DNA from: an uncultured Bacteroidota bacterium | Lineage (GTDB): Bacteria; Bacteroidota; Rhodothermia; Balneolales; HLUCCA01 | Assembly: GCA_947085565.1 (NCBI GenBank) | Contig: CAMTWZ010000002.1 | Location: 3,921 to 67,920, forward strand | DNA: 64,000 nt | Direction: 5' to 3' | Shown: piece after piece, positions 710-57,483 of the stretch | Numbering within the stretch: the first letter of the stretch is position 1 | Layout: the number at the start of each line of letters is the position of its first letter | Position numbers and translations under genes: made by a program | Notes under the pieces: generated by a model | What the model was told of the DNA's origin: nothing | The model's database searches: none | The model's input: only the letters and a program-made list of their open reading frames with translations

Positions 710-913
710 GGTAATTGGTAATTAGTAATTGGAAATTAGTACCCCTTAACATAATAACCAACTACCAACTACCAATTACCAATTACCAACTACCAACTAC
801 CAATTACCAACTACCAACTACCAACTACCAACTACCAACTACCAATTACCAACTACCAACTACCAACTACCAATTACCAATTACCAACTACCAACTACCA
901 ACTACCAACTACC
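710..913. repeat. Inverted heptamer arrays: (GGTAATT)n at 710-741 and about 22 x TACCAAC/TACCAAT at 756-913
   Basis: Read directly. Confidence 0.95.
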
Positions 914-1131
914 TCCAAGGCATCGCGATCACATGTTCTGACAGATGGACGGGTCTTTCGACCGCGCAGATGAGAAGGCCTTTTGCGACGGGCAGGTTCG
1001 GATGGGCCGCGCGAAAGGCATGAATGCCCGGCCAATGCGCCAGGTGAGGAGAGGAAGGCGGCATGTCCAGCGACTGGAAAGGCTACGCAAAGTTTGGTCA
1101 GACGGTCGGATAGGAGTTTTGGGGTGTACAT
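909..1131 (-). pseudogene. Collapsed remnant of an AAA ATPase (AAA_14/DUF4143-type) gene
   Basis: N-terminus MYTPKLLSDRLTKLCVAFPV, internal SSPGALAGH and, in another frame, C-terminus AFRAAHPNLPVAKGLLICAVERPVHLSEHVIAMPWR*; Walker motifs absent. Confidence 0.55.
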
Positions 1132-1250
1132 ACCTTGCATTATGATGACGATATCATCAAATTGCAAGGTATTTCAGCCGGGAAGGATTTGCTTGTGGGA
1201 GCTGGGATTATGGATGAGAATCATTCATTCACCGAGCACTTCAAGAGTTT

Positions 1251-1325
1251 ATGTACAGAAGAAGATCCGGATTAATCCTCGGCTTTCACGGCTGCGATGA
1301 GTCGGTCGCACAGGATGCTCTCGAC
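1251..1325 (+). pseudogene. N-terminal fragment of a conserved hypothetical gene (MYRRRSGLILGFHGCDESV), truncated by REP elements
   Basis: GFHGCD N-terminus recalled from a Bacteroidota hypothetical family; sequence turns into repeats at 1326. Confidence 0.45.
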
Positions 1326-1517
1326 GGGTCCTTCGGTCGCTACGCCTGCCTGCCGGCAGGCAAGCTCCCTCAGGATGAGGAGTTCACTTCAATCTTCCAC
1401 GGGGTGGGGCTTAAGCCCCACCCCGTTTTCGAAGGACCTTTGTTATTTGCCACGAAGCGCTGTCATCCTGACCCTGACCCTGAGCAGAGCGAAGGGGAAG
1501 GGGAAGGGGAAGGACCT
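1326..1517. repeat. Composite REP cluster: GTCATCCTGAG-family inverted pair with nested palindromes, including a perfect 28-bp palindrome at 1399-1426
   Basis: gggtccttcg...ctcaggatgag; acggggtggggcttaagccccaccccgt; tgtcatcctgaccctgaccctgagcagagcgaagggg...gaaggacc. Confidence 0.85.
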
Positions 1518-2535
1518 ACCTCAAACACCCCGCTACCACCTCAATCCCTTCCGCGCTCGGGTGCGGATCGGTGGGCAATTGTAGGTCCTTTGTATCGCCC
1601 CTTCTTTCAAGTCTCTTGTCTCTATCGCCTTGTCTCTCATTCGCGAAGCGAAGGACCTCACCACAATCCTTCCACGTCACTCCAAGTTCCGCGGCGATCG
1701 CCGCCATCGCCGCCATCAGGTAGCGCTGGTTCACATCCACCTGCTGAATGGCCGGGTAGCCGTTCGAGGCGAGCACCAACGTGCAGCCCGAGGCGGCGCA
1801 CAGGTCGCGCATCCGACCGAAAATCATCGTGTGAATCTGCGCGATGTACAGGCTGTCGCCGTTGCCCACCGGCGTGCTGAGGTCGTCGAAGTACCAGCGC
1901 GTCCAGGCGAACCGGATGAAGCCGTTGAGCAGGTAGCTGTGTTTCTGGGCGGCATGATAGCCGGGAATGGCTTCCATGGCCTCGCGGAAGGCGGTTTTAC
2001 GCCAACGCTGCGATTCTCCGTCGAGGCGGTAGAGGTCCTTGGCCAGGGTTCGGGTGGCGTCGTCGATGCTCAGAAGCACGATCAAAGTATCGGCTTCGAG
2101 CAGGTGCGGAAAGGTTTCGAGTTGCGCGAGGTAATCGGCCGGACCCGCGCCCCCCACCGCGAAATTCCGCCATCCCATGCGATGCGCCAGGGTTGATGAA
2201 TCGGGGAGATGCAGGCCGAAGGCGTAGGAGTCGCCGAGGAGGATGGTTGCAGGGGCCGGCCTATGTGCCGGCCCGTCTGCCAACGCATCCGCCCGAGGGA
2301 CGACACGCGGGTCGTCCCATGATACCCTGAACCGATCTCGATCAAACGTGTAGGTCACGACCACCCCATCAAGTTCGTGGATGGCCGTTCCTCCGGCGCG
2401 GTTCATCACGAAGCCGCGGTCGTGCATGTCGATCCACGTCTGCATCCGGTCGAAGGGATGCACCACGTGAAGCACGCCCTCGGCAAGCAGGAGGGAGACG
2501 ATCAACGAGCCGAGGAAGAGGAGGAGGTTGCGCAT
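1516..2535 (-). CDS. SGNH/GDSL hydrolase-like membrane-anchored protein
   Basis: N-terminal TM segment, LGDSYAFG, NFAVGGAG and C-terminal DPHPS motifs. Confidence 0.75.
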   Translation of the reverse strand: MRNLLLFLGSLIVSLLLAEGVLHVVHPFDRMQTWIDMHDRGFVMNRAGGTAIHELDGVVVTYTFDRDRFRVSWDDPRVVPRADALADGPAHRPAPATILLGDSYAFGLHLPDSSTLAHRMGWRNFAVGGAGPADYLAQLETFPHLLEADTLIVLLSIDDATRTLAKDLYRLDGESQRWRKTAFREAMEAIPGYHAAQKHSYLLNGFIRFAWTRWYFDDLSTPVGNGDSLYIAQIHTMIFGRMRDLCAASGCTLVLASNGYPAIQQVDVNQRYLMAAMAAIAAELGVTWKDCGEVLRFANERQGDRDKRLERRGDTKDLQLPTDPHPSAEGIEVVAGCLR

Positions 2536-2546
2536 GGGGGAAGATA

Positions 2547-2652
2547 GGAATCGGGAATCGGGAATCGGGAATCGGAAATCTTCCTATCTTCACGACGAAC
2601 GACGAACGACGAACGACGAACAACGAACAACGAACAACGAGCAACAGACAAC
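2547..2652. repeat. Heptamer arrays (GGAATCG)n and (ACGAACG/ACGAACA)n in a divergent promoter region
   Basis: Read directly; a CCTATCTTC box on each strand. Confidence 0.9.
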
Positions 2653-3678
2653 ATGAACATCCTCCTCACCGGTGGGGCCGGCTTCATCGGCTTCAATTTC
2701 GTCTCGTATTGGCTGGCCAACGACCCGTCGGTCCGTTTCGCGAACATCGACAAGCTTACCTACGCCGGAAATCCCGCTTCCTTGCAGCTTCTGGCCGCTT
2801 ATGGCGACCGCCACACCCATCACAAGGTGGATATATGCGACGGTGCGGCCGTGCGCGCGGTGTTCGAGAGCTTCAAGCCGGATGTGGTGATCCACTTCGC
2901 CGCGGAGAGTCATGTGGATCGGTCGATCGACGGACCCGGTGAATTCATTCAAACCAACATCAACGGCACATTCACGCTCTTGCAGGAAAGCCTGCGTCAT
3001 TTCGAGAGCTTGGATGAGGCTGGTAAAGCGAAATTCCGGTTTCATCATGTGTCCACCGACGAAGTCTTCGGCTCGCTGGGCGACACCGGCTATTTTTCGG
3101 AAACCACGGCATACGATCCGCGGAGCCCGTACTCGTCGTCGAAAGCCGCATCAGATCACCTCGTCCGCGCCTGGTATCACACCTATGGCTTGCCGGTGGT
3201 GCTTACGAACTGCTCGAACAACTACGGTGCGTTCCACTTTCCTGAGAAACTGATCCCTCTCATGATTCTGAAACTCCACAACGGAAAACCCTTACCGGTC
3301 TACGGCGACGGTTTGAACGTCCGCGATTGGCTCTATGTCGAAGACCATGTGCGCGCGCTGATGACCGTGCTCCGCGGCGGACGCTCCGGCGAGACCTACT
3401 GCGTGGGCGGCGGCGCCGAGATGAAGAACATCGACGTCGTGAAGACGCTGATTCAAGTGATGGATGAGGCTTATCCGCATCCCGAGATCAAAGACCGCAC
3501 CTCCCTCATCACATACGTCGAAGACCGGAAAGGCCACGACCGCCGCTACGCCATCGACGCGTCGAAACTGCACACCGAGCTCGGCTGGTCGCCGCAAGAA
3601 AGCTTCGAAAGCGGGATCCGCAAGACGGTGAAGTGGTATATGGAAAATGAAGCGTGGTGGAGGCCGTTGCTTCGCTAG
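2653..3678 (+). CDS. rfbB: dTDP-glucose 4,6-dehydratase
   Basis: TGGAGFIG, AAESHVDRSI, HVSTDEVFG, YSSSKA, GHDRRYAID. Confidence 0.97.
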   Translation: MNILLTGGAGFIGFNFVSYWLANDPSVRFANIDKLTYAGNPASLQLLAAYGDRHTHHKVDICDGAAVRAVFESFKPDVVIHFAAESHVDRSIDGPGEFIQTNINGTFTLLQESLRHFESLDEAGKAKFRFHHVSTDEVFGSLGDTGYFSETTAYDPRSPYSSSKAASDHLVRAWYHTYGLPVVLTNCSNNYGAFHFPEKLIPLMILKLHNGKPLPVYGDGLNVRDWLYVEDHVRALMTVLRGGRSGETYCVGGGAEMKNIDVVKTLIQVMDEAYPHPEIKDRTSLITYVEDRKGHDRRYAIDASKLHTELGWSPQESFESGIRKTVKWYMENEAWWRPLLR

Positions 3679-3688
3679 TCGCTCACTA

Positions 3689-3861
3689 AATTTTAAATTA
3701 TAAATTTTAAATGGTGGGTCTTGAGATCGAACCACGCAACGTGCTTCTAGCCAGGTACATCTCGGAGCCCATCATTTAAAATTGTCCATATAAAATTCAC
3801 ATTCGAGCTTTTAGCTAAGCACAGCTCCCCATTTATAATTAATAATTGTCAATTTAAAATT
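3689..3861. repeat. AT-rich AATTTTAAATG-family inverted repeats
   Basis: aaattttaaattataaattttaaatgg ... catttaaaattgtcc ... catttataattaataattgtcaatttaaaatt. Confidence 0.8.
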
Positions 3862-3903
3862 GGTGTATCTCGAAACGCGACTAAAACCTCTTAACCAAGT
3901 CCT

Positions 3904-4770
3904 ATGAAAGGAATTATTTTGGCCGGCGGTTCCGGCACCCGTCTGCATCCGCTCACGCTGGTCATGAGCAAGCAACTGTTGCCGGTCTATGATAAGCCGA
4001 TGATCTACTATCCGCTGAGCACGCTCATGATGGCCGGCATTCGCGACATCCTCATCATTTCCACGCCGCACGATCTGCCGCATTTCGAGCGCATTTTGGG
4101 GGATGGGAGCCGCATCGGATGTTCCTTCACGTACGCCGTTCAGCCCGAGCCGAAGGGCTTGGCGCAGGCGTTTACCATCGGCGCGGAGTTCATCGGCCGT
4201 GAAAAAGTGGCGCTGGTGCTCGGCGATAACATCTTTTACGGCGCCGGACTCGGTTCCCAACTCCGCAACTGCGCCGATCCGGATGGTGGCATCGTGTTCG
4301 CGTACCGGGTGAGCGATCCCGAGCGCTACGGCGTGGTGGAGTTCGACGCGGAGGGGCAAGTCCTTTCCATCGAAGAGAAGCCGGCCAAGCCGAAATCCAA
4401 TTATGCGGTTCCGGGTTTGTATTTCTATGACAACTCGGTCGTCGAAATCGCCCGCAACATCCAGCCGTCGCATCGCGGCGAGTTGGAAATCACCGATGTG
4501 AACCGGATGTACTTGGAAGCTGGCAAACTGAGCACGCGCATCCTTCCGCGCGGCACGGCCTGGCTGGATACCGGCACGTTCAACTCGCTGATGCAAGCGG
4601 GTCAGTTCATCCAAGTCATCGAAGACCGCCAAGGCTTCAAGATCGGCTGCATCGAAGAGATCGCGTGGAGGAACCATTGGATTGGTGATGCGGAGCTCGT
4701 GGCGCTGGGCGATCAGCTTGGGAAGAGCGGGTATGGGGCTTATCTGAAACGCTTGACGCTGGACGCTTGA
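3904..4770 (+). CDS. rfbA: Glucose-1-phosphate thymidylyltransferase
   Basis: [37 protein letters not shown]. Confidence 0.97.
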
Positions 4771-4818
4771 CGCCTGACGCTTGACGCTTGACGCCTGACG
4801 CTTGACGCCTGACGCTTA
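4749..4818. repeat. 10 x ACGCTTG/ACGCCTG array overlapping the stop codons of rfbA and the four-helix-bundle gene
   Basis: Read directly. Confidence 0.95.
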
Positions 4819-5169
4819 GGAGCGGACGCTTTTCATGTAATTGAGCAATGTCGCCCTGGTGTGGTTGACGTCGTTGTTCAGTGAGATAAATAGGGTTTCA
4901 TCGACATATCCCAGATCGTGAGCGATGATGAGATGGCATTCCACCTCATTGGCTGAGCCGAGGGCAATTTCTAAAAAGCGATAGAAATCTGCTTGAGATC
5001 GCCGAGATGCGCCTTCGGCGATGTTTGCCGCAATAGACACAACGGCTCTGCAAAGTTGATCGGTCAGTCGAAACCTCTCTTTCGAGGGAAAGGTGTCGGT
5101 TAGGGTATAGATGGCGACAGTCAATCTGCGTGATTTCTGCCACACTTCCATTTTCTTGAATTCTCTCAT
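4816..5169 (-). CDS. Four-helix-bundle protein (23S rRNA IVP/S23 family)
   Basis: FKKMEVWQKS, FPSKERFRLTDQLCRAVVSIAANIAEG, FLEIALGSANE. Confidence 0.93.
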   Translation of the reverse strand: MREFKKMEVWQKSRRLTVAIYTLTDTFPSKERFRLTDQLCRAVVSIAANIAEGASRRSQADFYRFLEIALGSANEVECHLIIAHDLGYVDETLFISLNNDVNHTRATLLNYMKSVRS

Positions 5170-5249
5170 GTTGCTTCTCCAAAGGTTATATTTGGATAGA
5201 GCTGATTTTCAGTGAATTCTTACAAACATTGCACAGATTTAGGACAAAA

Positions 5250-5277
5250 AGCGTCTAGCGTCTGGCGTCAAGCGTAA
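5250..5277. repeat. (AGCGTCN)x4 array, inverted partner of 4749-4818
   Basis: agcgtct agcgtct ggcgtca agcgtaa. Confidence 0.9.
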
Positions 5278-5281
5278 ACCC

Positions 5282-5806
5282 ATGCTCCTCCCCGGCCTCA
5301 TCCTCATCGAACCTCGCGTCTTCACCGATGCACGCGGCTATTTTTTCGAATCCTGGTCGAAGGCCAAGTACGATGAGCTCATCGGACCGGTCGATTTCAT
5401 CCAAGACAACGAATCGCAATCGGTGCGCGGCACCTTGCGCGGGCTGCATTATCAGCGCGAGCCCTTCGCCCAGTCGAAACTGGTGCGAGTGATCGCTGGA
5501 AGCGTGTTCGACGTGGCGGTGGACATCCGTCCCGGAAGCGCCACATTCGGCCAATGGTACGGCGTCGAGCTCTCGGCCGAAAACAAGCGCCAATTGTTCA
5601 TTCCGAAAGGGTTCGCCCACGGCTTTCTCGTGCTCAGCGACACCGCGATTTTCTCTTACAAGGTGGATGCGCCCTGGAACAAAGACTCGGAAGCGGCGAT
5701 CCGCTGGGACGACCCGAGCATCGGGATCGACTGGCCGATGAAGGAAGCCGAGTTGATTCTGAGTGAGAAAGATCGGAACGCGGGGCGTTTGACGCCTAAC
5801 GCTTGA
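5282..5806 (+). CDS. rfbC: dTDP-4-dehydrorhamnose 3,5-epimerase
   Basis: DARGYFFE, QDNES, RGLHYQ, GFAHGF. Confidence 0.96.
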   Translation: MLLPGLILIEPRVFTDARGYFFESWSKAKYDELIGPVDFIQDNESQSVRGTLRGLHYQREPFAQSKLVRVIAGSVFDVAVDIRPGSATFGQWYGVELSAENKRQLFIPKGFAHGFLVLSDTAIFSYKVDAPWNKDSEAAIRWDDPSIGIDWPMKEAELILSEKDRNAGRLTPNA

Positions 5807-5823
5807 CGCAAGAAGAGAAACGC

Positions 5824-6642
5824 ATGACGCAAGAACATCCTTCAGACAATGTCCTGCATAGAGCGTCTAGCGTTCAGCGTCCGGCGTTAAGCGTCCGGCG
5901 TCAAGCGTCCAGCGTTCCGCGCCTCACCGTCATCCTTCCCGCTTATAACGCCGCCAAGACCTTGCGTGCCACCGTCGCCGCCATTCCGATGGATGTGGTG
6001 CATGATGTGGTGTTGGTCGATGACCACAGTGGCGACGACACCTTCGCTCTCGCCCAGGAACTTGGCATCCACTGCGTTCGGCACGACGCGAACAAAGGAT
6101 ACGGCGCCAACCAGAAATCCTGCTACGACATCGCTCTCTCTCGAGGCGCCGATATCGTGATCATGCTCCATCCCGATTACCAGTACGAGCCGCGCCTGGT
6201 GCCCGCCATGGCCGCGATGATCACCTCGGGTGTGTACGATGTCTGTCTCGGATCACGCATTCTGGCGCAAGACGCGGTGGCCGGAGGGATGCCCGTCTAT
6301 AAGTACATCTCGAACCGCATCCTCACGCTCATCGAGAACCTGCTTCTCGGACAAAAACTGTCCGAGTACCACACCGGCTACCGCGCTTACAGCAGGAAGG
6401 CGCTCGAATCGGTCGATTATCATAAGAACAGCGACGATTTCATCTTCGACAACGAAATTCTCGCTCAGATGCAGCACAAGGGGATGCGGTTCGGGGAGAT
6501 CAGTTGTCCCACGAAGTACTTCGACGAGGCGTCGTCGATTAATTTCCGCCGCTCGGTGACCTATGGCTTCGGTGTTCTGCATACCGCGCTCCGATACCGG
6601 CTACACCGATGGAATCTGATGCGCTATGAGATCCTGGACTGA
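5824..6642 (+). CDS. Glycosyltransferase family 2 (DPM1-like)
   Basis: VILPAYN, VDDHSGD, NKGYGANQK, HPDYQY; N-terminus contains a translated heptamer array. Confidence 0.9.
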   Translation: MTQEHPSDNVLHRASSVQRPALSVRRQASSVPRLTVILPAYNAAKTLRATVAAIPMDVVHDVVLVDDHSGDDTFALAQELGIHCVRHDANKGYGANQKSCYDIALSRGADIVIMLHPDYQYEPRLVPAMAAMITSGVYDVCLGSRILAQDAVAGGMPVYKYISNRILTLIENLLLGQKLSEYHTGYRAYSRKALESVDYHKNSDDFIFDNEILAQMQHKGMRFGEISCPTKYFDEASSINFRRSVTYGFGVLHTALRYRLHRWNLMRYEILD

Positions 6643-8107
6643 GTCGCGATGGCTGCTGCCGCTGTGTTGGCTTGCGGCCGTGGTTGTGGTGAATCCGATC
6701 GGGAACTTCCCCCTGAACGACGACTGGAGCTACGCGTTGAACGTGCGCTCCTGGGTGGAAGGAGGCGTGTTCAAGTTCAACGACTGGGCGGCGATGACCC
6801 AACTCACACCCGTTCTGCTCGGCATCGGAGTGACGGAGGTGGTCGGATTTTCGCACACGGCGCTGCGGTTGGTGACGCTGGGGGTGGTGTTTTTCTTTGT
6901 TGTTGGGGCGCGCAGTACGGGCACATCATTGATGTGCCCGTACAATGCGCCCCTTCTGTTCAACCCCCTCTTCTTCTCCCTCTCGTTCACGTTCATGACG
7001 GATGTGTTTTTCCTGATTCTGTTTCTGGTGTCGATGGACCTGATCGTCCGGGAACGGTGGGGATGGGGCACGGTTTTCGCGGTGCTGGCCACCTTGACCC
7101 GGCAAACGGGCGTGGGACTGGGGTTGTCGTTGGTGGTGGGGTCCTTCTTTGGAGGCGCATATCATGCGCCTCTGCGGAGGTCGTTCTTGATGTCGATCAT
7201 TTTGGTCGGTGTTTTGATCGCCTATTCGGTCCTGATGTCCCATTTCGGGGTGATTTCGGGGAATTACAACACTTTGGGTGATTTGGCCTGGATATTAGGA
7301 CACGATCGCCCGCTGGCGCGGATGGGCGCGAACGCGGCGCTGGTGGTCACGTATTTGGGGCTGTTCACGTGGCCGGTGATTCCGCTGGCGTGGAGCCGGA
7401 TCCGGACGATGGCGCCGTGGTGGGTCTTCGCAGGCATCACGGTGGCGGTCGCCGCGCTGAGCTGGGGCCGGTTTCCGATGACGCACGACGGCAATCTGCT
7501 GGCAGGGTGGGGCATAGGTCCGCTGGTTCTGCCCGGCGGCCATGGGTTCGAAGGGCCGGGGCGATGGGTGGATGTCGTCTTAGGGCTTGGGGGCGCGGCG
7601 GGGGGCGGTGTGGTGATGGTAGCGGCGTGGAATGCCATGCGCAGTCACGATACTTCGCTATGGCTTCGGTGGGCGATTGTGATCTCCATCGGCTACACGC
7701 TTTTCATCCTTATCGGACGCTTTTTCTTCGATCGCTACATCCTGTTGCTGGTGCCCTTCGCGTTGCAGGTGGTCTTCGCACAGCAAGATGCCCCATCCAA
7801 GCCGGCCCGCTGGCTAAGTTATGCGCTGATGATCGCCATGGCCGCGTACTCCATCCTCGGAACGCGTCAGCTGATGGAGGTGAACCGCGCGCGGTGGGAA
7901 GCGGTTCGCTCGCTGACCCAAGCCGGCATCCCTACATCCGATATCGACGGCGGATTCGAAGTCAACGGCTGGCATCAGAACCCATCCCCCGAAACCGCGA
8001 CCTACGTGATCGGGCGAGTTCCTCCGCAAGGCGCGGTCATAGTGCGCAGGTTCGAGGAAGGGATCGTGGTTTGGAGACGGGACCTAATTTTAAATGATCA
8101 ATTTTAA
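6626..8107 (+). CDS. Polytopic membrane glycosyltransferase (GT-C, ArnT/PMT-like)
   Basis: NFPLNDDWSY loop, FMTDV, RQTG, FDRY, many TM segments. Confidence 0.75.
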   Translation: MRSWTESRWLLPLCWLAAVVVVNPIGNFPLNDDWSYALNVRSWVEGGVFKFNDWAAMTQLTPVLLGIGVTEVVGFSHTALRLVTLGVVFFFVVGARSTGTSLMCPYNAPLLFNPLFFSLSFTFMTDVFFLILFLVSMDLIVRERWGWGTVFAVLATLTRQTGVGLGLSLVVGSFFGGAYHAPLRRSFLMSIILVGVLIAYSVLMSHFGVISGNYNTLGDLAWILGHDRPLARMGANAALVVTYLGLFTWPVIPLAWSRIRTMAPWWVFAGITVAVAALSWGRFPMTHDGNLLAGWGIGPLVLPGGHGFEGPGRWVDVVLGLGGAAGGGVVMVAAWNAMRSHDTSLWLRWAIVISIGYTLFILIGRFFFDRYILLLVPFALQVVFAQQDAPSKPARWLSYALMIAMAAYSILGTRQLMEVNRARWEAVRSLTQAGIPTSDIDGGFEVNGWHQNPSPETATYVIGRVPPQGAVIVRRFEEGIVVWRRDLILNDQF

Positions 8108-8271
8108 ATGGGGTCCTTCGGGCCTTCGGCCCTCAGGATGACAGTGCCGTCGCTTTTTTGAATGGCGGCATAATGACACCCCAAGCGTACTTTTTATCTT
8201 GCTATGCCGCCTCTTCATTCATTTATTGACGCACTGTCATCCTGAGCGGAGCGAAGGACCCATTTATAATT
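8086..8271. repeat. Nested inverted-repeat element (AATTTTAAATG arms, GTCATCCTGAG arms, internal GCGGCATA/TATGCCGC hairpin)
   Basis: 8111-8147 pairs with 8231-8261; lies between convergent genes, so could also act as a terminator. Confidence 0.85.
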
Positions 8272-8779
8272 CCTTCCCACTTTCTACTTCTACCTTCTCA
8301 CTTAAAGAACTCCACCACACCCACATCGCGAAGATGACGATATAGAAGATCGCCGTGGTTGAATAATCATGCGTGACGGTGAAGATTGACGGCGCGTGCT
8401 TCTGCGTGATCACGAGCACCACCACACGGACGATGTTCACGAGGTAAATGAGAAAGAGTCCGAGCGGGATGAACCATGCGCGGTTTTTCCAGGTCCCTTT
8501 GAACGCCACCACAAAACCCACGAACAGGCCCAGCGCTTCGATGCCGTTGCACCCATCCACCATTTCGATGCCGTTCGCACCCGGGAGCGTGATCACACGG
8601 GCGTAAGTGATGATATCAAATCCCATCAGCTCCATAATCCATTTCGACACGGAAATGATGTGTAGCGAGAGGGCGTGGTCCACCCGCCCGTCGGGAAGGA
8701 TCCACAGGTCGTAAAGCAGATACCAGGCCACGAAGATGCCCAGTGATGTGATGATGAAGCGAGTGAGGTCTTTGTTCAC
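8264..8779 (-). CDS. Exosortase/archaeosortase family protein
   Basis: VDGCNG (Cys), NIVR (Arg), THDY (His) in a multi-TM protein. Confidence 0.85.
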   Translation of the reverse strand: MNKDLTRFIITSLGIFVAWYLLYDLWILPDGRVDHALSLHIISVSKWIMELMGFDIITYARVITLPGANGIEMVDGCNGIEALGLFVGFVVAFKGTWKNRAWFIPLGLFLIYLVNIVRVVVLVITQKHAPSIFTVTHDYSTTAIFYIVIFAMWVWWSSLSEKVEVESGKEL

Positions 8780-8780
8780 G

Positions 8781-8992
8781 AAAAGTAGGAAGTAGGAAGG
8801 TTGAAGTGGGAAGATAGGAATCAGGAATCAGGAATCGGAAATCAGGAATCAGGAAATCGGAAATCGGTAAATACCAGCGTACCAGCGTACCAGCGTACCA
8901 GCGTACCAGCGTACCAGCGTACCATCCTACCAGCGTACCAGCGTACCAGCGTACCAGCGTACCATCCTACCATCCTACCATCCTACCATCCT
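8781..8992. repeat. Stacked arrays: AAGTAGG, GGAATCA/G, ACCAGCGT and ACCATCCT
   Basis: Read directly. Confidence 0.95.
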
Positions 8993-9615
8993 CTTTGACC
9001 AATCAACGGCACGAACTTGAACCCGTCGTAGCGCTCCTCTTCGTACCCTGTCTCCGACATCCGCCATAGGCGAAGCATCTGTTGGGTTTCGTTGTCGCCA
9101 ACGGGGATCACGAGTCGCCCGCCGATTTTCAGTTGCTCCAACAGGCTTTCGGGCACCACCGGGGCTCCCGCCGTCACCACGATTCCGTCGTATGGAGCGT
9201 ACGCGCTCCATCCCAACGTGCCATCGCCGCATTTCAATTCAGGGCGGAACCCCATCCCACGCAGCAAATCCCGCGCTTTGAGATAGAGCGGCTCGTGTCG
9301 CTCGACGCTGAAGACCTTGTGTCCCATCTGGCACAACACTGCGCACTGATAACCCGATCCGGTTCCGATTTCCAACACGGTTTCGCCCGGATGCAGCTCC
9401 AACAACTCGGTCTGCCGCGCCACGGTGTACGGCTGCGAAATGGTCTGCTTCATGCCGATCGGCAGTGCGGTGTCCTCATACGCCCGATGCGCCAAGGCCG
9501 AATCGATGAACTGCTCGCGGGCCACAACCCCGATCGCACTCAAGACCCGCTCATCGAGGATGCCTTTGTCTCTGAGCTCTTGCACGAGCCGTGTTCTTGG
9601 GGCGGAGAAGCGCAT
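8983..9615 (-). CDS. pcm: Protein-L-isoaspartate O-methyltransferase
   Basis: QTISQP, VLEIGTGSGYQ, APYDGIVVTAG, FVPLIG. Confidence 0.96.
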   Translation of the reverse strand: MRFSAPRTRLVQELRDKGILDERVLSAIGVVAREQFIDSALAHRAYEDTALPIGMKQTISQPYTVARQTELLELHPGETVLEIGTGSGYQCAVLCQMGHKVFSVERHEPLYLKARDLLRGMGFRPELKCGDGTLGWSAYAPYDGIVVTAGAPVVPESLLEQLKIGGRLVIPVGDNETQQMLRLWRMSETGYEEERYDGFKFVPLIGQRGW

Positions 9616-9616
9616 G

Positions 9617-9857
9617 GGTAGGATGGTAGGATGGTAGGATGGTAGGATGGTAAAGATAGGAATCAGGAATCAGGAATCGGGATGGTCGAGGAAATGTTGA
9701 ATTTTAAATGTTGAATTTTAAATGAAGAGGTGCCACCTCGACATTCCGTAAAATCGCCATCTTACCGATTACCGATTACCGATTACCGATTACCGATTAC
9801 CGATTACCGATTACCGATTACCGATTACCGATTACCGATTACCGATTACCGATTACC
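9617..9857. repeat. Stacked arrays: (GGTAGGAT)n, GGAATCA, a 14-mer AATGTTGAATTTTA repeat and 13 x TTACCGA (9762-9852)
   Basis: Read directly. Confidence 0.95.
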
Positions 9858-9860
9858 ATC

Positions 9861-11168
9861 CTACCTAACCACCAACGGCAGCACATACACCCTGAACCTC
9901 GCATACCCCAGCGGACCTCCAAGCACGAGGAAATACGCGATCAACACGGTGAGCAGCACGAAGAGCTTGCGATCCTCGCTCCACAGTCGGTAGAAACCCC
10001 GCACCGCGAACATATACACTACGCACAGGAAGAGCACATACAGCACCAGGAAGGGGTAGGCCTTGACCAGCTTCCAAGCAGAACTCACGATTCCGTCTCT
10101 GGCCATGGTCTGAAGCAAACCGCCGGGATCCGCCTCCGACGCGCCGAAGGTGCGCACCCAGACTTCGCGTCCCGGATCGAACAACGTGTAGGCCACACCC
10201 TTGGCCATCTGGGCGACGAACGTGATCGGATACTCCGCCAGAATCTCTTTTGCGATGGCGGATTTGTTGGATGAAATCGTGTCGAACGTGTCGCCCTCGC
10301 GCTCCAGCAAGGTGTATCGAGCTCGAACCGTATCGATAGCTTGGGCATGGGTATAGCCTTCGGCGGCGGACAGCACAATCGCGGCATGACCCGTCATCAG
10401 ATTCTCCGCCGCGATGCTGGTGTAAGCGAAAGTCCCGTGCGAGGCGTAATTCCTCGCCTGCCACAGAAACGGCAGCCCCGCGGCGATCAGCACGAACCCG
10501 GCGATGCGCGACCATTTCCAGCCCAGGTAGCGAAGCACCGGAATCATCACCCACGGCAGGTAGAACGTGATGGGCTTTAGAAGCGTGGCGAGGCCGAGGA
10601 GGGTCCCGGCTCCGTAAGGGCGCATGGGAACGGGCGCATCATTGATGCGCCCCGCCCATGCGCCCCGAATCCAAACCACCATCCACACCATCAGCGGCGC
10701 GAAAATCATCTCCGTCAAGATCTCCTTCGAAAAGAGGAGGTGGCCGAGGTCGAAGAGGAGGACGAGGGCGGGCGCATTGTACGGGTGCATCACTGATGCA
10801 CCCGTGTCCATGCGCCCCACCCCCCACCAAAGTGCCACGCTCCCCGCAAGGTTCACAAGCAGCAAGCCCACCTTTCCCCAAAACCCCGTGCCGAACACCC
10901 AATACACCGCCGCGATGATAAGCGGGTAGCCCGGCGGACGGATCATATCCGCCATCGGGTCCGTGTCGGCCGAGCCGTAGCCTGGAGCCAGGTATTCGCC
11001 CGTCTCCAGCAACGACAGCGCGATCTGCTCATACAGGGCCGAATCGCCGTTGTACATCCTCGTCTCAGGGTCTTGCAGGGCCCAGAGGGCGATGCAAAGC
11101 CTGGAAACCAAATAGAGGCCGAATAACCAGGAGGGAAGAAATTTTAAATTGAAAATTTTAAATGGCAT
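9861..11168 (-). CDS. Polytopic membrane glycosyltransferase (GT-C-like); start uncertain
   Basis: DSALY, RPPGYP, ILTE, C-terminal ARFR, many TM segments. Confidence 0.75.
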   Translation of the reverse strand: MPFKIFNLKFLPSWLFGLYLVSRLCIALWALQDPETRMYNGDSALYEQIALSLLETGEYLAPGYGSADTDPMADMIRPPGYPLIIAAVYWVFGTGFWGKVGLLLVNLAGSVALWWGVGRMDTGASVMHPYNAPALVLLFDLGHLLFSKEILTEMIFAPLMVWMVVWIRGAWAGRINDAPVPMRPYGAGTLLGLATLLKPITFYLPWVMIPVLRYLGWKWSRIAGFVLIAAGLPFLWQARNYASHGTFAYTSIAAENLMTGHAAIVLSAAEGYTHAQAIDTVRARYTLLEREGDTFDTISSNKSAIAKEILAEYPITFVAQMAKGVAYTLFDPGREVWVRTFGASEADPGGLLQTMARDGIVSSAWKLVKAYPFLVLYVLFLCVVYMFAVRGFYRLWSEDRKLFVLLTVLIAYFLVLGGPLGYARFRVYVLPLVVR

Positions 11169-11237
11169 GCTTCACCACGTTCTGTGCAATGAAGAAAAGC
11201 CGCAAAACTCGAAATTCACACATTTAAAATTTCAAAT

Positions 11238-12239
11238 TTAAAATGTGTGCTGGCCATAAACCTGCCACATACTCTGGAGCAACGTCCTCAGATCCGAGTG
11301 CTGCGCTTTCCAGCCGAGTTTCTCTTCAGCGATGGTCGATGTGGCGTAGACGGTCGACGGATCCCCTTCGCGGCGACCCACGAACGTGAACGGAACCTTC
11401 TTGCCCGTGATCTCTTCTGTCATCGAAATCACATCCAGGATGGAATAGCCGACGCCAGTCGCCAGGTTGCATTTCAGGTTCTCGCCGGTGCGGGTGATGT
11501 AATCGACCGCCGCCACATGCGCCGTAGCCAGGTCGTTCACGTGGATGTAATCGCGAACGCAGGTACCGTCGTGCGTCGGATAATCATTGCCGTTCACCAC
11601 CATCGACGCGCGCGTTCCGTTGGCCACTTCCAGCACGATCGGGAGCAGGTTCGCCGGATTCTTCTCCAAGCCGCGCACGCGTCCTTTCACGTCATACCCC
11701 GCCGCGTTGAAATAGCGCAGCGCCGCAAATCGGATGCCTTTCAACTGCGAATACCAATCCAGATACCGCTCCACTTCCAGCTTCGTGAAGCCGTAATAAC
11801 TCATCGGCTGCTGCGGATGCGCCTCGTTCATCGGCAGATACTGCGGCTCGCCGTAGATGGCACTTGACGAGGAAAAGACGATGTTCTTGATGCCAGCTTC
11901 GCACATCGCATTCAGGATGTTCAAGGTGCCGATCAGGTTCGTCACGCTGTATTTCTCGGGCTTGGTCATGCTTTCACCCGCGTTCTTGAACGCGGCGAAA
12001 TGGACGACTGCGTCGTAGGGAGCTTGCCCTGAGCGAAGCGAAGGGTGGACCGAAAAGAGGGACTTCAAGTCGTTTTCGTTTAATATGTCGCCTTTGATGA
12101 AGGTTGCTTGAGGGGGGATGTTCTCCTCCCAGCCGGTGAGGAGGTTGTCGAAGATGGTGACTTCGTGTCCGTTTTCTATGAATTCGTAGGCTGTATGCGA
12201 ACCGATGTATCCGGCTCCACCGATGATGAGGATCTTCAT
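11238..12239 (-). CDS. galE: UDP-glucose 4-epimerase
   Basis: GGAGYIGSH, FSSS, YGFTK, LRYFNAAG, DGTCVRDYIHV. Confidence 0.95.
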   Translation of the reverse strand: MKILIIGGAGYIGSHTAYEFIENGHEVTIFDNLLTGWEENIPPQATFIKGDILNENDLKSLFSVHPSLRSGQAPYDAVVHFAAFKNAGESMTKPEKYSVTNLIGTLNILNAMCEAGIKNIVFSSSSAIYGEPQYLPMNEAHPQQPMSYYGFTKLEVERYLDWYSQLKGIRFAALRYFNAAGYDVKGRVRGLEKNPANLLPIVLEVANGTRASMVVNGNDYPTHDGTCVRDYIHVNDLATAHVAAVDYITRTGENLKCNLATGVGYSILDVISMTEEITGKKVPFTFVGRREGDPSTVYATSTIAEEKLGWKAQHSDLRTLLQSMWQVYGQHTF

Positions 12240-12315
12240 AAGTAGGAAGTAAGAAGGGTAAAGTAGGAAGATACGGGTACTGAGCGACGCTCAAACGGGA
12301 AGTCTGATCATGGTG

Positions 12316-12624
12316 AATTTTAAATGAACAATTTTAAATGAAGAGGTGCTTCGCATTAACACTCTGACCTCGCACCCTTCGCTTCGCTCAGGATGACAAC
12401 GCATCAACGTAAAAATAGAAGAGACGGCATAGCGCTTTTTAGGCGCACTTATGATCTCGCCATGCCGCCTCTTCATTATTTTCTAACTACGTACCCTCAT
12501 CCTGAGCGAAGCGAAGGACCTCTTCATTTAAAATTGTTCATTTAAAATTCAACATTCAGCACTGTCATCCTGAGCGAAGCGAAGGACCTCTTCATTTAAA
12601 ATTCAACATTTAAAATTCAACATT
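12316..12624. repeat. Nested inverted-repeat element (AATTTTAAATG and TCATCCTGAGCGAAGCGAAGG families)
   Basis: Multiple arms; same architecture as 8086-8271. Confidence 0.85.
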
Positions 12625-12649
12625 CTTCAATTTGGGATACCTTTAGCGC

Positions 12650-13573
12650 ATGAAAAGTCAATTCCTCCTCTATCTAAAAGGCTTCGCCATGGGTTCGGCC
12701 GATGTGGTCCCGGGTGTGAGCGGCGGAACCATGGCCCTGATCACCGGCATCTACACCCAACTGCTGGATTCGATCAAAAGCGTGGATGCCGCCGCGGTCA
12801 AACTCCTTGTCACATTCCAGTGGACATCCGCCTTTGAACGCATCCATTGGCGGTTCCTCGGGGTGCTTTTGGCCGGACTCTTTTCCGCCATCCTATTTTT
12901 CACTCGCGTGGTTCCGCTGCCCGAACTCATCCACTCTCATCCGGTTCAAGTGTACGGACTCTTTTTCGGACTCATCCTGGGTTCCGTGTTCATCGTGGGA
13001 AAGGAAGCGGCTCCATTCGATCTGCGAGCCATCGCATTCACTACGCTTGGTGTGGCGATCGGATTTTGGGTAGTGAATCTGGTGCCGACGGAGACTCCCG
13101 AACATCCGCTCTTCATCTTTTTCGCGGGTTCTATAGCCATTTGCGCGATGGTTCTGCCGGGGATTTCCGGCTCCTTCATCCTGCTCATCCTGCGCAAATA
13201 TGACTACGTACTCGGCCAGTTTGCCTTGCTCGGCGGACCCGAAACTCTCTCCGCCCTCGGCGTTTTGGTTCCCTTTGGCCTGGGTGTGCTCACCGGCATC
13301 GCGCTGTTCACCCGCTTTCTGAGCTGGTTGCTGCATCATTACGGAAAAGCCACCATGGCTGTGCTCATCGGGTTCATGATCGGGTCGCTTTGGGTGATCT
13401 GGCCCTGGCAGAGCCGCGTCTATGAAACCGTGCGTGGCCAAGAGAAACTCATCCACAGCGAGCCCATACTACCCGTGGTCGGAACTCCTGAATTCTATTG
13501 GGGAATCGGGATGATGGCGGTGGGGTTTTTCATTGTTCTAATATTGGAGAGCGCCGCACGTCGATCCCGTTAG
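12650..13573 (+). CDS. DUF368 family membrane protein (putative undecaprenyl-phosphate transporter)
   Basis: GFAMGSADVVPGVSGGT and AICAMVLPGISGS repeats. Confidence 0.92.
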   Translation: MKSQFLLYLKGFAMGSADVVPGVSGGTMALITGIYTQLLDSIKSVDAAAVKLLVTFQWTSAFERIHWRFLGVLLAGLFSAILFFTRVVPLPELIHSHPVQVYGLFFGLILGSVFIVGKEAAPFDLRAIAFTTLGVAIGFWVVNLVPTETPEHPLFIFFAGSIAICAMVLPGISGSFILLILRKYDYVLGQFALLGGPETLSALGVLVPFGLGVLTGIALFTRFLSWLLHHYGKATMAVLIGFMIGSLWVIWPWQSRVYETVRGQEKLIHSEPILPVVGTPEFYWGIGMMAVGFFIVLILESAARRSR

Positions 13574-13658
13574 AGTTCGTTAATTGTCGGAACAGTGGTG
13601 TAACATTGTGGTACTTTTAGACTCATTGAGGTAAACGTATCCAGGTTTCCCCTCACCC

Positions 13659-14078: not shown

Positions 14079-14087
14079 AGGACACCC

Positions 14088-14519: not shown

Positions 14520-14525
14520 ACCCCC

Positions 14526-15863: not shown

Positions 15864-18712
<2,849 letters not shown>

Positions 18713-19121: not shown

Positions 19122-19124
19122 CCT

Positions 19125-53820: not shown

Positions 53821-53897
53821 AGCGAAGGACGTGGGACGTGGGACGTAGAACGAAAGGCGTTTTCGTCCCACGTTTTTCGTCTCACGTCCTTCGTCTT

Positions 53898-54191
53898 ATG
53901 CAACACTCCTCCCTCGAAAAGATCAATGTCATCGCCTCTTTCGCGGCGTTCGTCACCGACAAGCAGAAGCGCCGCCTGGTGCCTCACCGCTTCATGATGC
54001 GCAACGGCGATGTGCACGTGGTGGCCTCGGTTCGCAAGAGTTACACCGAAGTGGTGGGCGATTCCAAACACGTCCATTTCGTGGTAAAAACCAGCGAGAA
54101 CCGCTATTTCGACATCGTGTACGACAGCAAGGAGATGGCCTGGCTTTGCGTGCTGGAGATCGAGGAAGGATTTTTGATAGAGACAAGGTGA
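53898..54191 (+). CDS. Small beta-rich protein upstream of dinB (DUF6504-like)
   Basis: PHRF...V..V...F.V...YFDIVYD...W pattern. Confidence 0.6.
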   Translation: MQHSSLEKINVIASFAAFVTDKQKRRLVPHRFMMRNGDVHVVASVRKSYTEVVGDSKHVHFVVKTSENRYFDIVYDSKEMAWLCVLEIEEGFLIETR

Positions 54192-54302
54192 AAGAGACAA
54201 GGTGAAAGAGACAAGGTGAAAGAGACAAGAGACAAGGAAGAGTTAATTAGGGAGTTCTCTTGTCTCTTGTCTCTTGTCTCTTAACCCTTGTCTCTTGTCT
54301 CT
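54179..54302. repeat. Inverted GAGACAA(GGTGAAA)/TTGTCTC arrays
   Basis: Read directly; same family at 174-202, 1610-1637 and 57452-57483. Confidence 0.9.
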
Positions 54303-54310
54303 GCCCCCTT

Positions 54311-55621: not shown

Positions 55622-55623
55622 TC

Positions 55624-55684
55624 CGTAGGCGGTAGACCGTAGACCGTAGGTCGGTCTTCCCGGTCTACGGTCTACGACCCACGG
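55624..55684. repeat. Inverted AGACCGT/ACGGTCT heptamer hairpin between convergent genes
   Basis: Read directly; possible terminator. Confidence 0.75.
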
Positions 55685-55685
55685 T

Positions 55686-57311
55686 TTACCAGAATACCGT
55701 GTACAAAAGTGCCAGAACCACCATCAGCACATACGATCCGATGGCGAAGCCTTTGGTGGTGCGGAAGGTTTCCGAGGTGAGGCGGATGGCCTTCTCGTCG
55801 TCGTCATCCGGATTGGTGGTGAGGCTGATGCCCACCATCAGTACCATGGTCAGAATGGCGGTGTAGAACATCTGGTCGAGGAAAGGAAGCGCCACGGCCG
55901 GAAGCTTGAGCAGGAAGGCGATGAAGATGGAGGCGATCACACCGATCACTGCGGCTTTGGCGGTGGTTTTTTTCCAGAACAGACCCATCAGGAACACAGC
56001 CAGAATACCCGGACTCACCAACCCCGTGTATTCCTGGATGTATTGGAAGATCTGGGCTTGTCCGGCGAGAAGCGGTGCGATGACACTGGCGACGACCAAA
56101 GCGACCGCGGCCGTGGTGCGACCCGTGAACAGCATCTGCTTGTCGGTAGCATCGGGACGGATGTACGCTTGGTAGATATCCATCGTGAAGATGGTGGATA
56201 CCGAGTTGAGCATGGATGCCAACGATGAGACGATGGCGGCCACAAGAGCGGCGATCACCAAGCCTTTGAGTCCGGCTGGAATGAAACTCTTCACCAGCCA
56301 AGGGTAGGAATTGTCATACTGGATGCTTCCGTCGCTGTTCAGAAACGCGCCCTGAACCCCATCGATCACAGCGGTGCCTTCAGGTGCGGTGAACATCACA
56401 TAGGCGATGATGCCCGGAACCACGACGAGAATCGGAAGGATCATTTTGAGTCCGGCCGCGAAAAGAAGTCCTTTTTGGGCTTCCTGCAGAGATTTTGCGG
56501 CCAGCGCGCGCTGGATGATGTATTGGTTGAAGCCCCAGTAGTACACGTTGGCAACCCACATGCCCCCGATCAGCACGCCGATGCCGGGAAGGTTGGAGAA
56601 CTGGGGATGATCTTTGGGCAGAATCATGTGGAACTTGTCGCCGGCCACATCCATCATGTGTGTGAACCCCGCCAATACGCCGCCATTGGGCGTGAGAGCG
56701 TCAAGGGCAATGAAGCAGGTGAGCAGGCCGCCGATGACGAGAAGAACGACTTGGACCACATCCGTCCAGGCCACCGCAGCCAAGCCGCCATAGAGCGAAT
56801 ACGAGGCCGCGAGCACTCCGAGGAAGATGATGCCCGGAATCACATAGGATCCGTCGCCGATGCCGACGATGGTGTCGATGGCTTTGGAACCCAGATACAG
56901 CACCGAAGTCAGATTCACGAAGATGAACAGCGCGATCCAGAACACGGCGAGGATGGTTTTGAGCGTGCCGTTGAACCGTTGCTCGATGAATTGGGGGATG
57001 GTGTACAAGCCTTTCTCGATGAAGATCGGGAGCAAGAATTTGGCCACGAGGATGAGTGTGAGAGCGGCCATCCATTCATAGGAGGCGATGGCCAACCCGA
57101 TGGCGAAACCTGAACCCGACATGCCGATGAACTGCTCGGCGGAGATGTTCGCAGCGATGAGCGAGGCGCCGATGGCCCACCAGGGCAGCGTCTTACCGGC
57201 GAGGAAATAATCGTTGGCGTTGGTCTGGTGACCTTTCTTGGTGCGGGATACCCACAATCCCAATCCGATGATGGTCAGGATGTAAAGGGTGAAAATGACG
57301 ATGTCAATCAT
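55686..57311 (-). CDS. Sodium:solute (sugar) symporter, SSS family
   Basis: DYFLAG, ANISAEQFIG, GGLAAVAWTD, NQYIIQR. Confidence 0.93.
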   Translation of the reverse strand: MIDIVIFTLYILTIIGLGLWVSRTKKGHQTNANDYFLAGKTLPWWAIGASLIAANISAEQFIGMSGSGFAIGLAIASYEWMAALTLILVAKFLLPIFIEKGLYTIPQFIEQRFNGTLKTILAVFWIALFIFVNLTSVLYLGSKAIDTIVGIGDGSYVIPGIIFLGVLAASYSLYGGLAAVAWTDVVQVVLLVIGGLLTCFIALDALTPNGGVLAGFTHMMDVAGDKFHMILPKDHPQFSNLPGIGVLIGGMWVANVYYWGFNQYIIQRALAAKSLQEAQKGLLFAAGLKMILPILVVVPGIIAYVMFTAPEGTAVIDGVQGAFLNSDGSIQYDNSYPWLVKSFIPAGLKGLVIAALVAAIVSSLASMLNSVSTIFTMDIYQAYIRPDATDKQMLFTGRTTAAVALVVASVIAPLLAGQAQIFQYIQEYTGLVSPGILAVFLMGLFWKKTTAKAAVIGVIASIFIAFLLKLPAVALPFLDQMFYTAILTMVLMVGISLTTNPDDDDEKAIRLTSETFRTTKGFAIGSYVLMVVLALLYTVFW

Positions 57312-57321
57312 GGTGATTTTG

Positions 57322-57483
57322 GTGCGAAGTGCGATGGGTGAGGTGCGAGGTTCGAATCGCAATGTATGGAAAAAGTACGTGGACCGTGGACCGTAGACCG
57401 GAAATAGGAAATCAGGAATCGGAAATCAGGAATCGGAAATCGAACTATCTTTCTTGTCTCTTGTCTCTTGTCTCTTGTCTCTC
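57322..57483. repeat. Stacked heptamer arrays (GTGCGAN, GGACCGT, GGAAATC, TTGTCTC) in a divergent region
   Basis: Read directly. Confidence 0.85.

Follow-up and report, generated by a model that had tools for sequence, protein, structure and literature searches.

Tandem arrays of short units are stacked at many gene junctions in a 64,000-nucleotide (nt) stretch of contig CAMTWZ010000002.1 (positions 3,921 to 67,920 of the forward strand; hereafter the window) from GCA_947085565.1, the genome of an uncultured Bacteroidota bacterium. These arrays are a known kind of bacterial heptamer repeat in a new host lineage, probably Balneolales, with about 50 unit variants. The genome (2.75 Mb in 25 contigs, 54% G+C, 99% completeness; G000 in comparisons) was analysed as a whole, and the window makes up 2.3% of it. 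Gene content in the window is ordinary for a chromosome and includes rhamnose-nucleotide synthesis, glycosyltransferases, PCMT, a monomeric isocitrate dehydrogenase, many two-component proteins and a T9SS sorting domain. Such a gene set rules out a cyanobacterium. A first-pass annotation had described a dozen or more unrelated repeat families, nearly all of period 7, that abut start or stop codons and often form inverted arms, and had proposed a four-helix-bundle protein (IVP) and a RAYT encoded in the window as candidates for a dedicated machinery. The nearest named relative of this genome's IVP protein comes from a Balneolales metagenome-assembled genome. The arrays of the window and the genes beside them are given below with copy numbers (x) and predicted folding energies.

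709-741: short TGGTAAT arm, adjoining the start codon of a GH108 gene (224-709, minus strand).
757-913: TACCAAC/TACCAAT x22.4, 15 nt after the TGGTAAT arm, the two inverted; fold of 700-800 at -25.4 kcal/mol, z -5.1.
2547-2580: GGAATCG x4.9, in a divergent spacer (2536-2652) built almost wholly of two arrays.
2592-2652: ACGAACG/ACAACGA (ACGAACR), reaching the ATG at 2653 of a dehydratase gene with a Pfam-confirmed start.
4749-4817, plus strand: ACGCTTG (ACGCYTG) x9.9, left arm of the IVP cassette; it holds the stops of the nucleotidyl-transferase (rmlA-like) and IVP genes.
4816-5169, minus strand: four-helix-bundle 23S_rRNA_IVP (TIGR02436) gene between inverted arrays; Pfam 4.3e-38, NCBIfam 2.3e-37.
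5250-5275, minus strand: AGCGTCT x3.7, a shared arm, right for the IVP cassette and left for the rmlC bracket, ending 6 nt short of the rmlC start.
5282-5806, plus strand: rmlC, dTDP-4-dehydrorhamnose 3,5-epimerase; inverted arms of 24 nt at 5251-5274 and 5786-5809, 83% complementary.
5774-5919: hairpin between rmlC and a GT2 gene, made of an ACGCTTG-type array (5786-5830) and AGCGTCC x7.7 (5862-5916); -66.5 kcal/mol, z -6.0.
8264-8779, minus strand: exosortase-like gene; arms of degenerate CTTCCYA (8273-8303) and AAGTAGG (8783-8813), 31 nt, 71% complementary.
8783-8988, plus strand: stack of four arrays, AAGTAGG x5.3 (8783-8820), AGGAATC x5.7, ACCAGCGT x14.6 and then ACCATCCT x4.
8872-8988 and 9617-9652: ACCAGCGT/ACCATCCT arrays; the ACCAGCGT x14.6 array holds interspersed ACCATCCT.
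8983-9615, minus strand: PCMT gene, bracketed by ACCATCCT (to 8988) and its inverse GGTAGGAT x4.5 (9617-9652), the latter 1 nt from the start codon.
9658-9857, plus strand: AGGAATC x3.6, the 14-mer AAATGTTGAATTTT x2.4 (9692-9724) and TTACCGA x13.7 (9762-9857), which stops 3 nt short of the next gene's stop.
12316-12625: 14-mer arrays AATTTTAAATGAAC and inverse, joined to copies of the motif CCTGAGCGAAGCGAAGG, with one 68-bp unit x1.9 among them.
18666-18709, plus strand: GGGAATC x6.3, 1 nt away from the start of the minus-strand gene for monomeric isocitrate dehydrogenase, whose sense strand reads GATTCCC.
26764-27447, plus strand: RAYT-like open reading frame (ORF) of 227 aa with no heptamer array beside it.
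28952-28981 and 29371-29401, plus strand: in-frame TTCAACA inserts in one histidine-kinase gene, each coding STFNIQPSTL.
36893-36919, plus strand: TTCAACA insert in a second histidine-kinase gene, conserved in the congener G001.
53827-53895: GGACGTG (53827-53846) and its inverse, a hairpin after the stop of a hybrid kinase gene; -48.7 kcal/mol, z -8.0.
54175-54310: array of AGAGACA type with inverted TCTCTTG x6.7, together a long hairpin upstream of a Y-family polymerase gene; -61.8 kcal/mol, z -5.6.
54256-54302 and 57452-57482: TTGTCTC arrays found by Tandem Repeats Finder (TRF).
55623-55676: CCGTAGA x3.9 and CGGTCTA x2.3 (AGACCGT), a hairpin between convergent genes; -42 kcal/mol, z -4.3.
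57378-57482, plus strand: stack of CGTGGAC, CGGAAAT/AATCAGG and TCTTGTC in a divergent spacer.

TRF returned 70 rows for the window, 31 of them with period 7, 13 with period 14, five with period 21 and three with period 8. The period histogram bears out the genome-wide enrichment for 7 bp implied by the first-pass annotation. At a TRF score of at least 50, the genome contained 85 period-7, 47 period-14, 19 period-21, 19 period-8 and 5 period-6 arrays, as compared with 0, 1, 2, 0 and 0 in the order-3 Markov sequence that served as chance control. Exact runs of at least three copies numbered 106 at period 7, 19 at period 8 and 17 at period 6 (1, 0 and 0 in the control), and there were none genome-wide at periods 9-11. 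The window holds 12 of the 106 period-7 runs and 4 of the 19 period-8 runs, about five times its genome share. At a score of at least 40, the threshold used for unit classes and for counts in relatives, there were 203 period-7 arrays in 51 unit classes with up to 24 copies, and 40 period-8 arrays. Genome-wide, exact period-7 runs fall steadily in number with copy number (360 of two copies, 56 of three, 18 of four and 7 of five, followed by a long tail), with no peak at four units. The AAGTAGG family was found by TRF at 24 loci on 11 contigs, and GGGAATC, the second commonest family, at 19 loci on 13 contigs; GGGAATC occurs genome-wide as 75 doublets and 11 exact runs of at least three copies. 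Thirteen of the 14 units named in the first-pass annotation are TRF arrays at or near the places given for them. The remaining one, GTGCGAN, is only a two-copy match (57322-57334); it has four loose matches against 0.55 expected, a number reached in 1 of 100 shuffles.

The location and polarity of the arrays were studied with a genome-wide set of 316 arrays (12,962 bp) and a crude longest-ORF gene model that covers 91.6% of the genome and has its starts trimmed past arrays. With this model, 232 of the 316 arrays are wholly outside ORFs, 44 lie on an ORF edge and 40 are inside, and only 16.7% of array bases fall in ORFs. In seven window genes with Pfam-confirmed starts an array ends 0-11 nt from the start codon. 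Stop codons can even fall within arrays, as that of the rmlA-like gene does within ACGCTTG x9.9. Arrays after stop codons are about as numerous as arrays before starts (147 vs 144). The placement at gene junctions is confirmed, with the exception of the TTCAACA arrays. These are in-frame inserts of 30 nt within the coding sequence of two histidine kinases (two inserts in one, a single insert in the other), and they code STFNIQPSTL.

The strand of an array follows the direction of the gene next to it: the leader is G-poor up to the start codon, and the trailer is G-rich from, or within, the stop codon. Among upstream arrays the sense strand had more C than G in 101 and the reverse in 36, and among downstream arrays G exceeded C in 91 and fell below it in 50. 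In divergent spacers, where the arm nearer the start was scored, the sense strand was C>G in 50 arrays vs 18 (p 1e-4), and in convergent spacers, where the arm nearer the stop was scored, it was G>C in 36 vs 8 (p 2.5e-5). Tandem spacers, in which the start and stop rules conflict, gave 63 vs 73. The geometry suggests that a bracket with its C-rich arm first would read alike on both strands, so that, in either orientation, a bracketed gene would have its leader G-poor and its trailer G-rich. G-quadruplexes were considered as the common cause and rejected, since the polarity is kept in the 251 arrays without G-runs (divergent 39 vs 16, convergent 31 vs 6); only 65 of the 316 arrays have GGG or CCC in the unit, and quadruplex formation is therefore not the common property.

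Another possibility is that the period is set by a reader: a general protein that binds single strands over about 7 nt, such as a cold-shock or S1-type OB fold, would occupy each unit, and arrays would be kept for tuning translation or RNA stability. The termination of arrays 0-11 nt from verified start codons agrees with such a reader, as do the leader arrays, which are pyrimidine-rich and G-poor on the sense strand. As described in PMC4679880, B. subtilis CspB binds heptamer repeats in such a way that each heptamer takes up a single protein, and readers of the S1, Csp or Csr type have been proposed for the TAACTGA repeats that lie just upstream of starts. The approximately 50 units, which occur on either strand according to position, argue against one sequence-specific reader, and period-8 arrays coexist with those of period 7. 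Many arrays also lie after stops or in predicted hairpins, where single-strand binding is unlikely. This explanation is considered unlikely on the whole.

The inverted arms reported in the first-pass annotation were confirmed genome-wide: for 117 of the 316 arrays there is an inverted 11-mer partner no more than 3 kb away, whereas 60 have a direct partner within the same distance and 173 have neither kind. The inverted partner is less than 100 nt away in 68 arrays, which gives hairpins, and a second cluster of 17 arrays lies at 400-600 nt and consists mostly of brackets around IVP genes. The predicted folding energies of five close inverted pairs in the window range from -25 to -66 kcal/mol, with z between -4.3 and -8.0. 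Ordinary genes are bracketed in the same way as IVP genes are, for example PCMT by ACCATCCT and GGTAGGAT. The arrays resemble REP/BIME elements in being intergenic, hairpin-forming and very numerous, and in occurring between genes that belong to the same operon. REPs, however, are single imperfect palindromes with a conserved sequence that is recognised by RAYT, whereas here tandem arrays of varied units are found. In E. coli, REP hairpins between genes of one operon can stabilise the upstream mRNA.

The families are not unrelated, as the first-pass annotation had supposed. Among the 51 heptamer classes (rotation and strand combined) there are 60 one-substitution links, compared with 22.9 +/- 4.7 in composition-matched random sets (maximum 38 in 300 trials), and the largest component of the network joins 42 of the 51 units (random mean 8.8, maximum 26). 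One such chain runs from GGGAATC through GGTAATC (= TTACCGA) and GGTAATT (= TACCAAT) to GGTAGTT (= TACCAAC), and single-substitution steps are visible in place within mixed arrays. Because the units are linked by mutation, the period can be inherited. A mobile element with fixed ends was rejected as the source of the arrays because the flanks of one family are not conserved: no conserved termini were present in the aligned flanks of the GGAATCR and AAGTAGG families.

Two congeners (G001 and G003, with about 75-85% gene identity to this genome) carry arrays at matching junctions, with other units and lengths. The junction between the exosortase-like gene and PCMT holds ATCGGGA, AATCAGT and TTCCCGC x18.6 in G001, and AAGTAGG, AGGAATC, ACCAGCGT and ACCATCCT here; the G001 counterpart of the junction at 57378-57482 holds CGGGAAT and CTTCCTA. 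It is hardly credible that the arrays are assembly artefacts of a metagenome-assembled genome, a possibility that the first-pass annotation had raised against itself and that is not upheld. Matching junctions occur in the independent congener assemblies, such arrays are found in two one-contig relatives (G015 and G028) and in named isolate genomes of other taxa, and variant units within arrays are unique anchors. On the artefact side, k=31 contigs built from four public runs all end within arrays, so that the copy numbers of the longest arrays may be inexact. Five public sequencing runs, kept as Logan contigs, contained at least half of the sampled words of window 2400-10000, and one RNA run had a 0.06 share of window words. 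The k=31 contigs of the four runs match window 1-20000 identically between arrays; many apparent joints among these contigs are false links through shared units and have no bearing on copy number, inversion or expression.

The turnover of units and lengths at the same junctions is also what would be expected of contingency loci, in which changes in copy number would switch or grade the neighbouring genes by analogy with the heptanucleotide repeats in Haemophilus hmw promoters. Arrays do occupy promoter and leader positions, and several of their neighbours in the window are cell-envelope or polysaccharide genes. Housekeeping genes (isocitrate dehydrogenase, PCMT and a sodium:solute symporter) are flanked too, however, arrays are as common after stops as before starts, and the loci number in the hundreds. 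A contingency function is judged quite improbable.

Comparison with G001 also revealed reversals of single genes. Gene order is kept, and 2 of 13 aligned segments are inverted, corresponding to rmlC and the exosortase-like gene. The rmlC gene is reversed in both paralogous regions of G001, and the exosortase-like gene is reversed in G003 as well; in the present genome, inverted arrays bracket each of the two flipped genes. None of 9 segments was inverted in a second stretch, of 28 kb, compared with G001. Eight bracketed non-IVP genes or segments were checked: two were flipped, two were missing from the matching place and four were unchanged. The two missing in G001 (E-value cut-off 1e-30) were also sought in G003, where that of contig C20 is missing too and that of C7 matches on a different contig. 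The IVP cassette is not at the matching place in G001, which has repeats of 58 bp x1.9 and 161 bp x2.3 there (locus L179, 8254-8818). It is partly shown that inverted arrays act as, or mark, recombination substrates that flip or replace single genes. A bolder proposal is that inverted heptamer arrays make single genes into invertible or exchangeable cassettes: recombination between arms, by a general or unknown system, would flip genes, and exchange between brackets would move genes, IVP above all, in and out, so that simple repeats would shuffle genes without a site-specific recombinase. This proposal is tentative and is thought rather doubtful. As a separate observation, a 117-aa gene lies beside two direct GGAAGTA arrays on contig C7 of this genome (138782-139560; locus L231, 1782-2561). 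In G001 the same gene is found on the far side of its 2-kb neighbour, and a small gene has thus been transposed within a zone rich in arrays.

The first-pass annotation had inferred from the shared period that a dedicated enzyme or element writes the arrays. The candidates weighed here were the IVP protein, a RAYT-type transposase and a template-copying polymerase that adds 7-nt units as telomerase does. The sharp period peak and the recurrence of units at many loci would suit a writer of this kind, and IVP genes do have a physical tie to arrays: of the 10 in the genome, 9 are enclosed by inverted arrays, and in 76 of 80 IVP loci from other taxa arrays occur within 250 bp of the gene. These 80 loci (65 Flavobacteriia-type and 15 of other taxa) were drawn from a four-protein IVP alignment, a query which biases them toward one IVP subfamily and Flavobacteriia. 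IVP matches were counted in 40 relatives of the order, where they range from 0 to 19, and arrays of period 7 or 8 were counted in 16 relatives sampled at 80-300 kb each; some samples (G014, G035 and G022) take in contig starts, so that densities are rough. In this genome 10 IVP matches accompany about 9 arrays per 100 kb. Four relatives with no IVP match (G008, G014, G035 and G026) have no arrays in 96-276 kb each, and G006, with one broken IVP gene, has none in 80 kb, as a writer would predict. Presence and absence seemed to agree in the first nine relatives, and IVP as generator was rejected when seven more broke the agreement. G022 has neither an IVP gene nor a Y1_Tnp match and yet has 8 arrays in 120 kb, with one inverted pair enclosing the gene of a 163-aa membrane protein. 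Conversely, G032 (IVP 6) and G040 (IVP 4) have no arrays in 100 kb each, and G036, with 19 IVP matches, has 3 arrays in 300 kb, or 1 per 100 kb. Markov controls for the sampled relatives gave 0 arrays throughout. The correlation of heptamer load with IVP and RAYT copy number that had been suggested as a check thus showed no dose relation among the 16 relatives, with counter-examples both ways.

Other observations separate the arrays from IVP genes. At most about 20 of the 316 arrays adjoin an IVP gene, and each IVP cassette has a different unit. At the 65 Flavobacteriia-type loci the arms of IVP genes have period 8 (33), 9 (11) or 16 (19) and never period 7, whereas arrays far from IVP have period 7 (29), 14 (28), 21 (9) or 8 (10). 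For arrays distant from IVP genes at the 15 loci from other taxa, the periods are 7 (19), 14 (14) or 21 (8); no array of period 7 or 8 appeared in the Markov control. Since the arm periods differ from those of the other arrays, IVP arms and general arrays are different populations. The cassettes are like ORF-bearing 23S rRNA intervening sequences (S23p/IVP; PMC4990558) in having a small four-helix-bundle gene in the stem of inverted flanks. They do not account for the approximately 300 arrays here that are not beside IVP, for the bracketing of ordinary genes or for arrays in an IVP-free genome. IVP genes therefore look like frequent passengers in array brackets and not like makers of arrays, and of the earlier claim the physical tie stands, but load does not follow IVP count.

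The RAYT-like ORF fared no better as a candidate. It is below the family cut-off (NF047646, 52.7 bits, cut-off 80) and has its own inverted 16-mers, TACTGTCCGCAAGTTG and CAACTTGCGGACAGCA, at about 26560 and 27457 (region 26560-27471). RAYT genes are flanked by REP palindromes, whereas this ORF has that 16-nt inverted repeat on either side, with no array. Pfam gave 3 Y1_Tnp matches for the genome; at E 0.001 or better the window had none. RAYT was rejected as array maker on account of the sub-threshold ORF, its own inverted repeat and Y1_Tnp counts that do not track load. The ORF may be a conserved single-copy, perhaps domesticated, gene; weak Y1_Tnp matches with open frames of 181-202 aa occur once each in several relatives. 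A reverse transcriptase of telomerase-like or diversity-generating retroelement type was rejected as well, as the 99%-complete genome has no RVT_1 match. A dedicated writer, IVP or RAYT in particular, is not supported, given that the units are linked by mutation and that a preference for heptamers is known across phyla; it is regarded as very improbable.

Heptamer arrays have been reported from several bacteria. Mrazek et al. (2007), as described in PMC4679880, ranked heptanucleotide repeats first in abundance in most repeat-rich genomes and suggested that a 7-nt polymerase contact favours slippage. The preference for heptamers across unrelated phyla is reported in PMC4679880 and PMC4692102, and the present analysis met with it in other phyla as well. 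Rehm et al. (2015) have described 186 GGGAATC-type arrays in Xanthomonas campestris and GGGGA(T/C)T in Nostoc (PMC4692102). According to that account, the Xanthomonas arrays lie no more than 50 bp from an ORF, antisense when upstream of it and sense when after its stop; 70 of them form paired inverted sites, and a sister species has them at the same junctions with varying length. The present genome shares with Xanthomonas, as portrayed there, hundreds of intergenic heptamer arrays including the GGGAATC unit itself, a G-rich strand that is antisense before ORFs and sense after stops, close inverted pairs, and the same junctions in related species with varying length and sequence. It differs in having about 50 unit families, a G-run in 65 of 316 arrays, no four-unit preference and a host in another phylum. 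The neighbourhoods in Xanthomonas were reported as more stable (PMC4692102), whereas here bracketed genes were flipped or replaced. Since polarity, inverted pairs, junction conservation and one unit are already in print for another phylum, the arrays belong to a known kind of repeat in a new host lineage.

MacGregor (2015; PMC4679880) has reported TAACTGA repeats from marine Beggiatoaceae, from some Cyanobacteria and from five Bacteroidetes, where they stop a few nt short of the start codon. The present arrays are like these in being mostly intergenic, in ending a few nt from the start codon and in their fixed orientation. That paper also suggests a rearrangement role for longer arrays and mentions mixed heptamer assemblages in a Bacteroidetes genome. 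As described there, a single unit was studied, related heptamers were rarely repeated and one inverted pair was seen; here many related units occur and inverted pairs are common. Tandem TAACTGA is absent from this genome (0 doublets, 124 single copies). The likeness to cyanobacterial STRR repeats proposed in the first-pass annotation is accepted: as in the STRR of heterocystous cyanobacteria described in PMC4679880 and PMC4692102, several heptamer families are spread over intergenic DNA and heptamers are the dominant class of long simple sequence repeats (SSR). The features of the heptanucleotide long SSR/STRR class, namely tandem excess, intergenic location and units dispersed over many loci, are all found here. 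The three classical STRR units are not tandem in this genome, and the bracketing and flipping of genes are features here that are absent from the STRR descriptions in PMC4679880 and PMC4692102. A limited literature search found no publication linking Balneolales with tandem repeats or heptamers.

Taken as a whole, the observations are probably best explained by slippage-prone heptamer arrays with an inherited period and drifting units, which are confined to gene ends, keep their orientation through selection on RNA, and as inverted pairs form hairpins and mark or drive single-gene rearrangement. Replication slippage and unequal exchange would make arrays grow, shrink and homogenise, with the period preserved as the units change by one substitution at a time. 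Through exchange, arrays would also replace one another and become stacked at the few tolerant places, the gene junctions. Selection on RNA presumably keeps the polarity, in that an unstructured leader would suit initiation without a Shine-Dalgarno sequence and hairpins could be 3' end, processing or stabilising structures. Inverted arrays that neighbour each other or bracket a gene could pair into long hairpins and would be substrates, or marks, of recombination that flips or replaces single genes, IVP genes riding along. With regard to the earlier objection that simple slippage would not fix a period of about 7, the period can be inherited through linked units, and an explanation by polymerase slippage has been published.

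Several points weigh against this explanation. Slippage alone leaves a period of 7, as opposed to 5, 6 or 9, unexplained, and the polymerase contact is a published conjecture. The presence of one unit at 19-24 loci requires some copying route. Slippage within this genome is deduced from sequence, since the k=31 contigs break in arrays, and the transcription of arrays, the formation of hairpins and effects on expression are predictions. The gene model behind the location and polarity counts is crude. The evidence for flips is small, amounting to two events, and as the congeners do not have the same arms at the flipped genes, arrays may mark fragile junctions and not cause inversions. Finally, 4 of 5 relatives without an intact IVP match have no array in 96-276 kb, which fits a link between IVP and arrays or a shared loss.

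Other elements were noticed in the window. A palindromic element of about 150 nt at 8105-8265 recurs at 12370-12480 and 12497-12625, with ends GGGTCCTTCG...CCTCAGGATGACAG and the inverse. Its predicted fold is -75.6 kcal/mol (z -8.1), and many copies with about 72% identity are present in G001. It has the look of a MITE or REP-like family that is distinct from the heptamer arrays. Copies of the 17-nt motif CCTGAGCGAAGCGAAGG number 8 in the window (0.02 expected; 1479, 8241, 12028, 12376, 12501, 12569, 18743 and 29333) and 48 in the genome, with 13 inside crude ORFs. It is often found between short arrays, and tandem clusters of about 47 bp occur on contig C6 at 149-152 kb. In the histidine-kinase gene the motif codes LSEAKG directly before the TTCAACA insert at 29371-29401. 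The STFNIQPSTL insert is tolerated in two histidine kinases, with one copy just after the phospho-acceptor helix region. Grouped at 18816-22065 are the genes for a helix-turn-helix protein, for Abi_2 (abortive-infection-like) and for a HsdM methylase of type I restriction-modification, possibly a small defence island.

Heptamer arrays in cyanobacteria, Xanthomonas and Beggiatoaceae have been noted for decades, and their origin and role are still not agreed. This genome is a compact (2.75 Mb) and very dense case in another lineage. The polarity and the GGGAATC unit, which are common to it and to Xanthomonas, point to a general property of bacterial replication or RNA handling and not to a lineage-specific device. 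The role of the widespread IVP genes is limited as well: they ride in array brackets and are not needed for arrays. Related units, fast turnover between congeners and flipped bracketed genes make slippage with an inherited period, RNA selection for polarity, and arrays as recombination substrates testable. If single genes between inverted arrays do prove to be flip cassettes, this would be a gene-shuffling system built from simple repeats.

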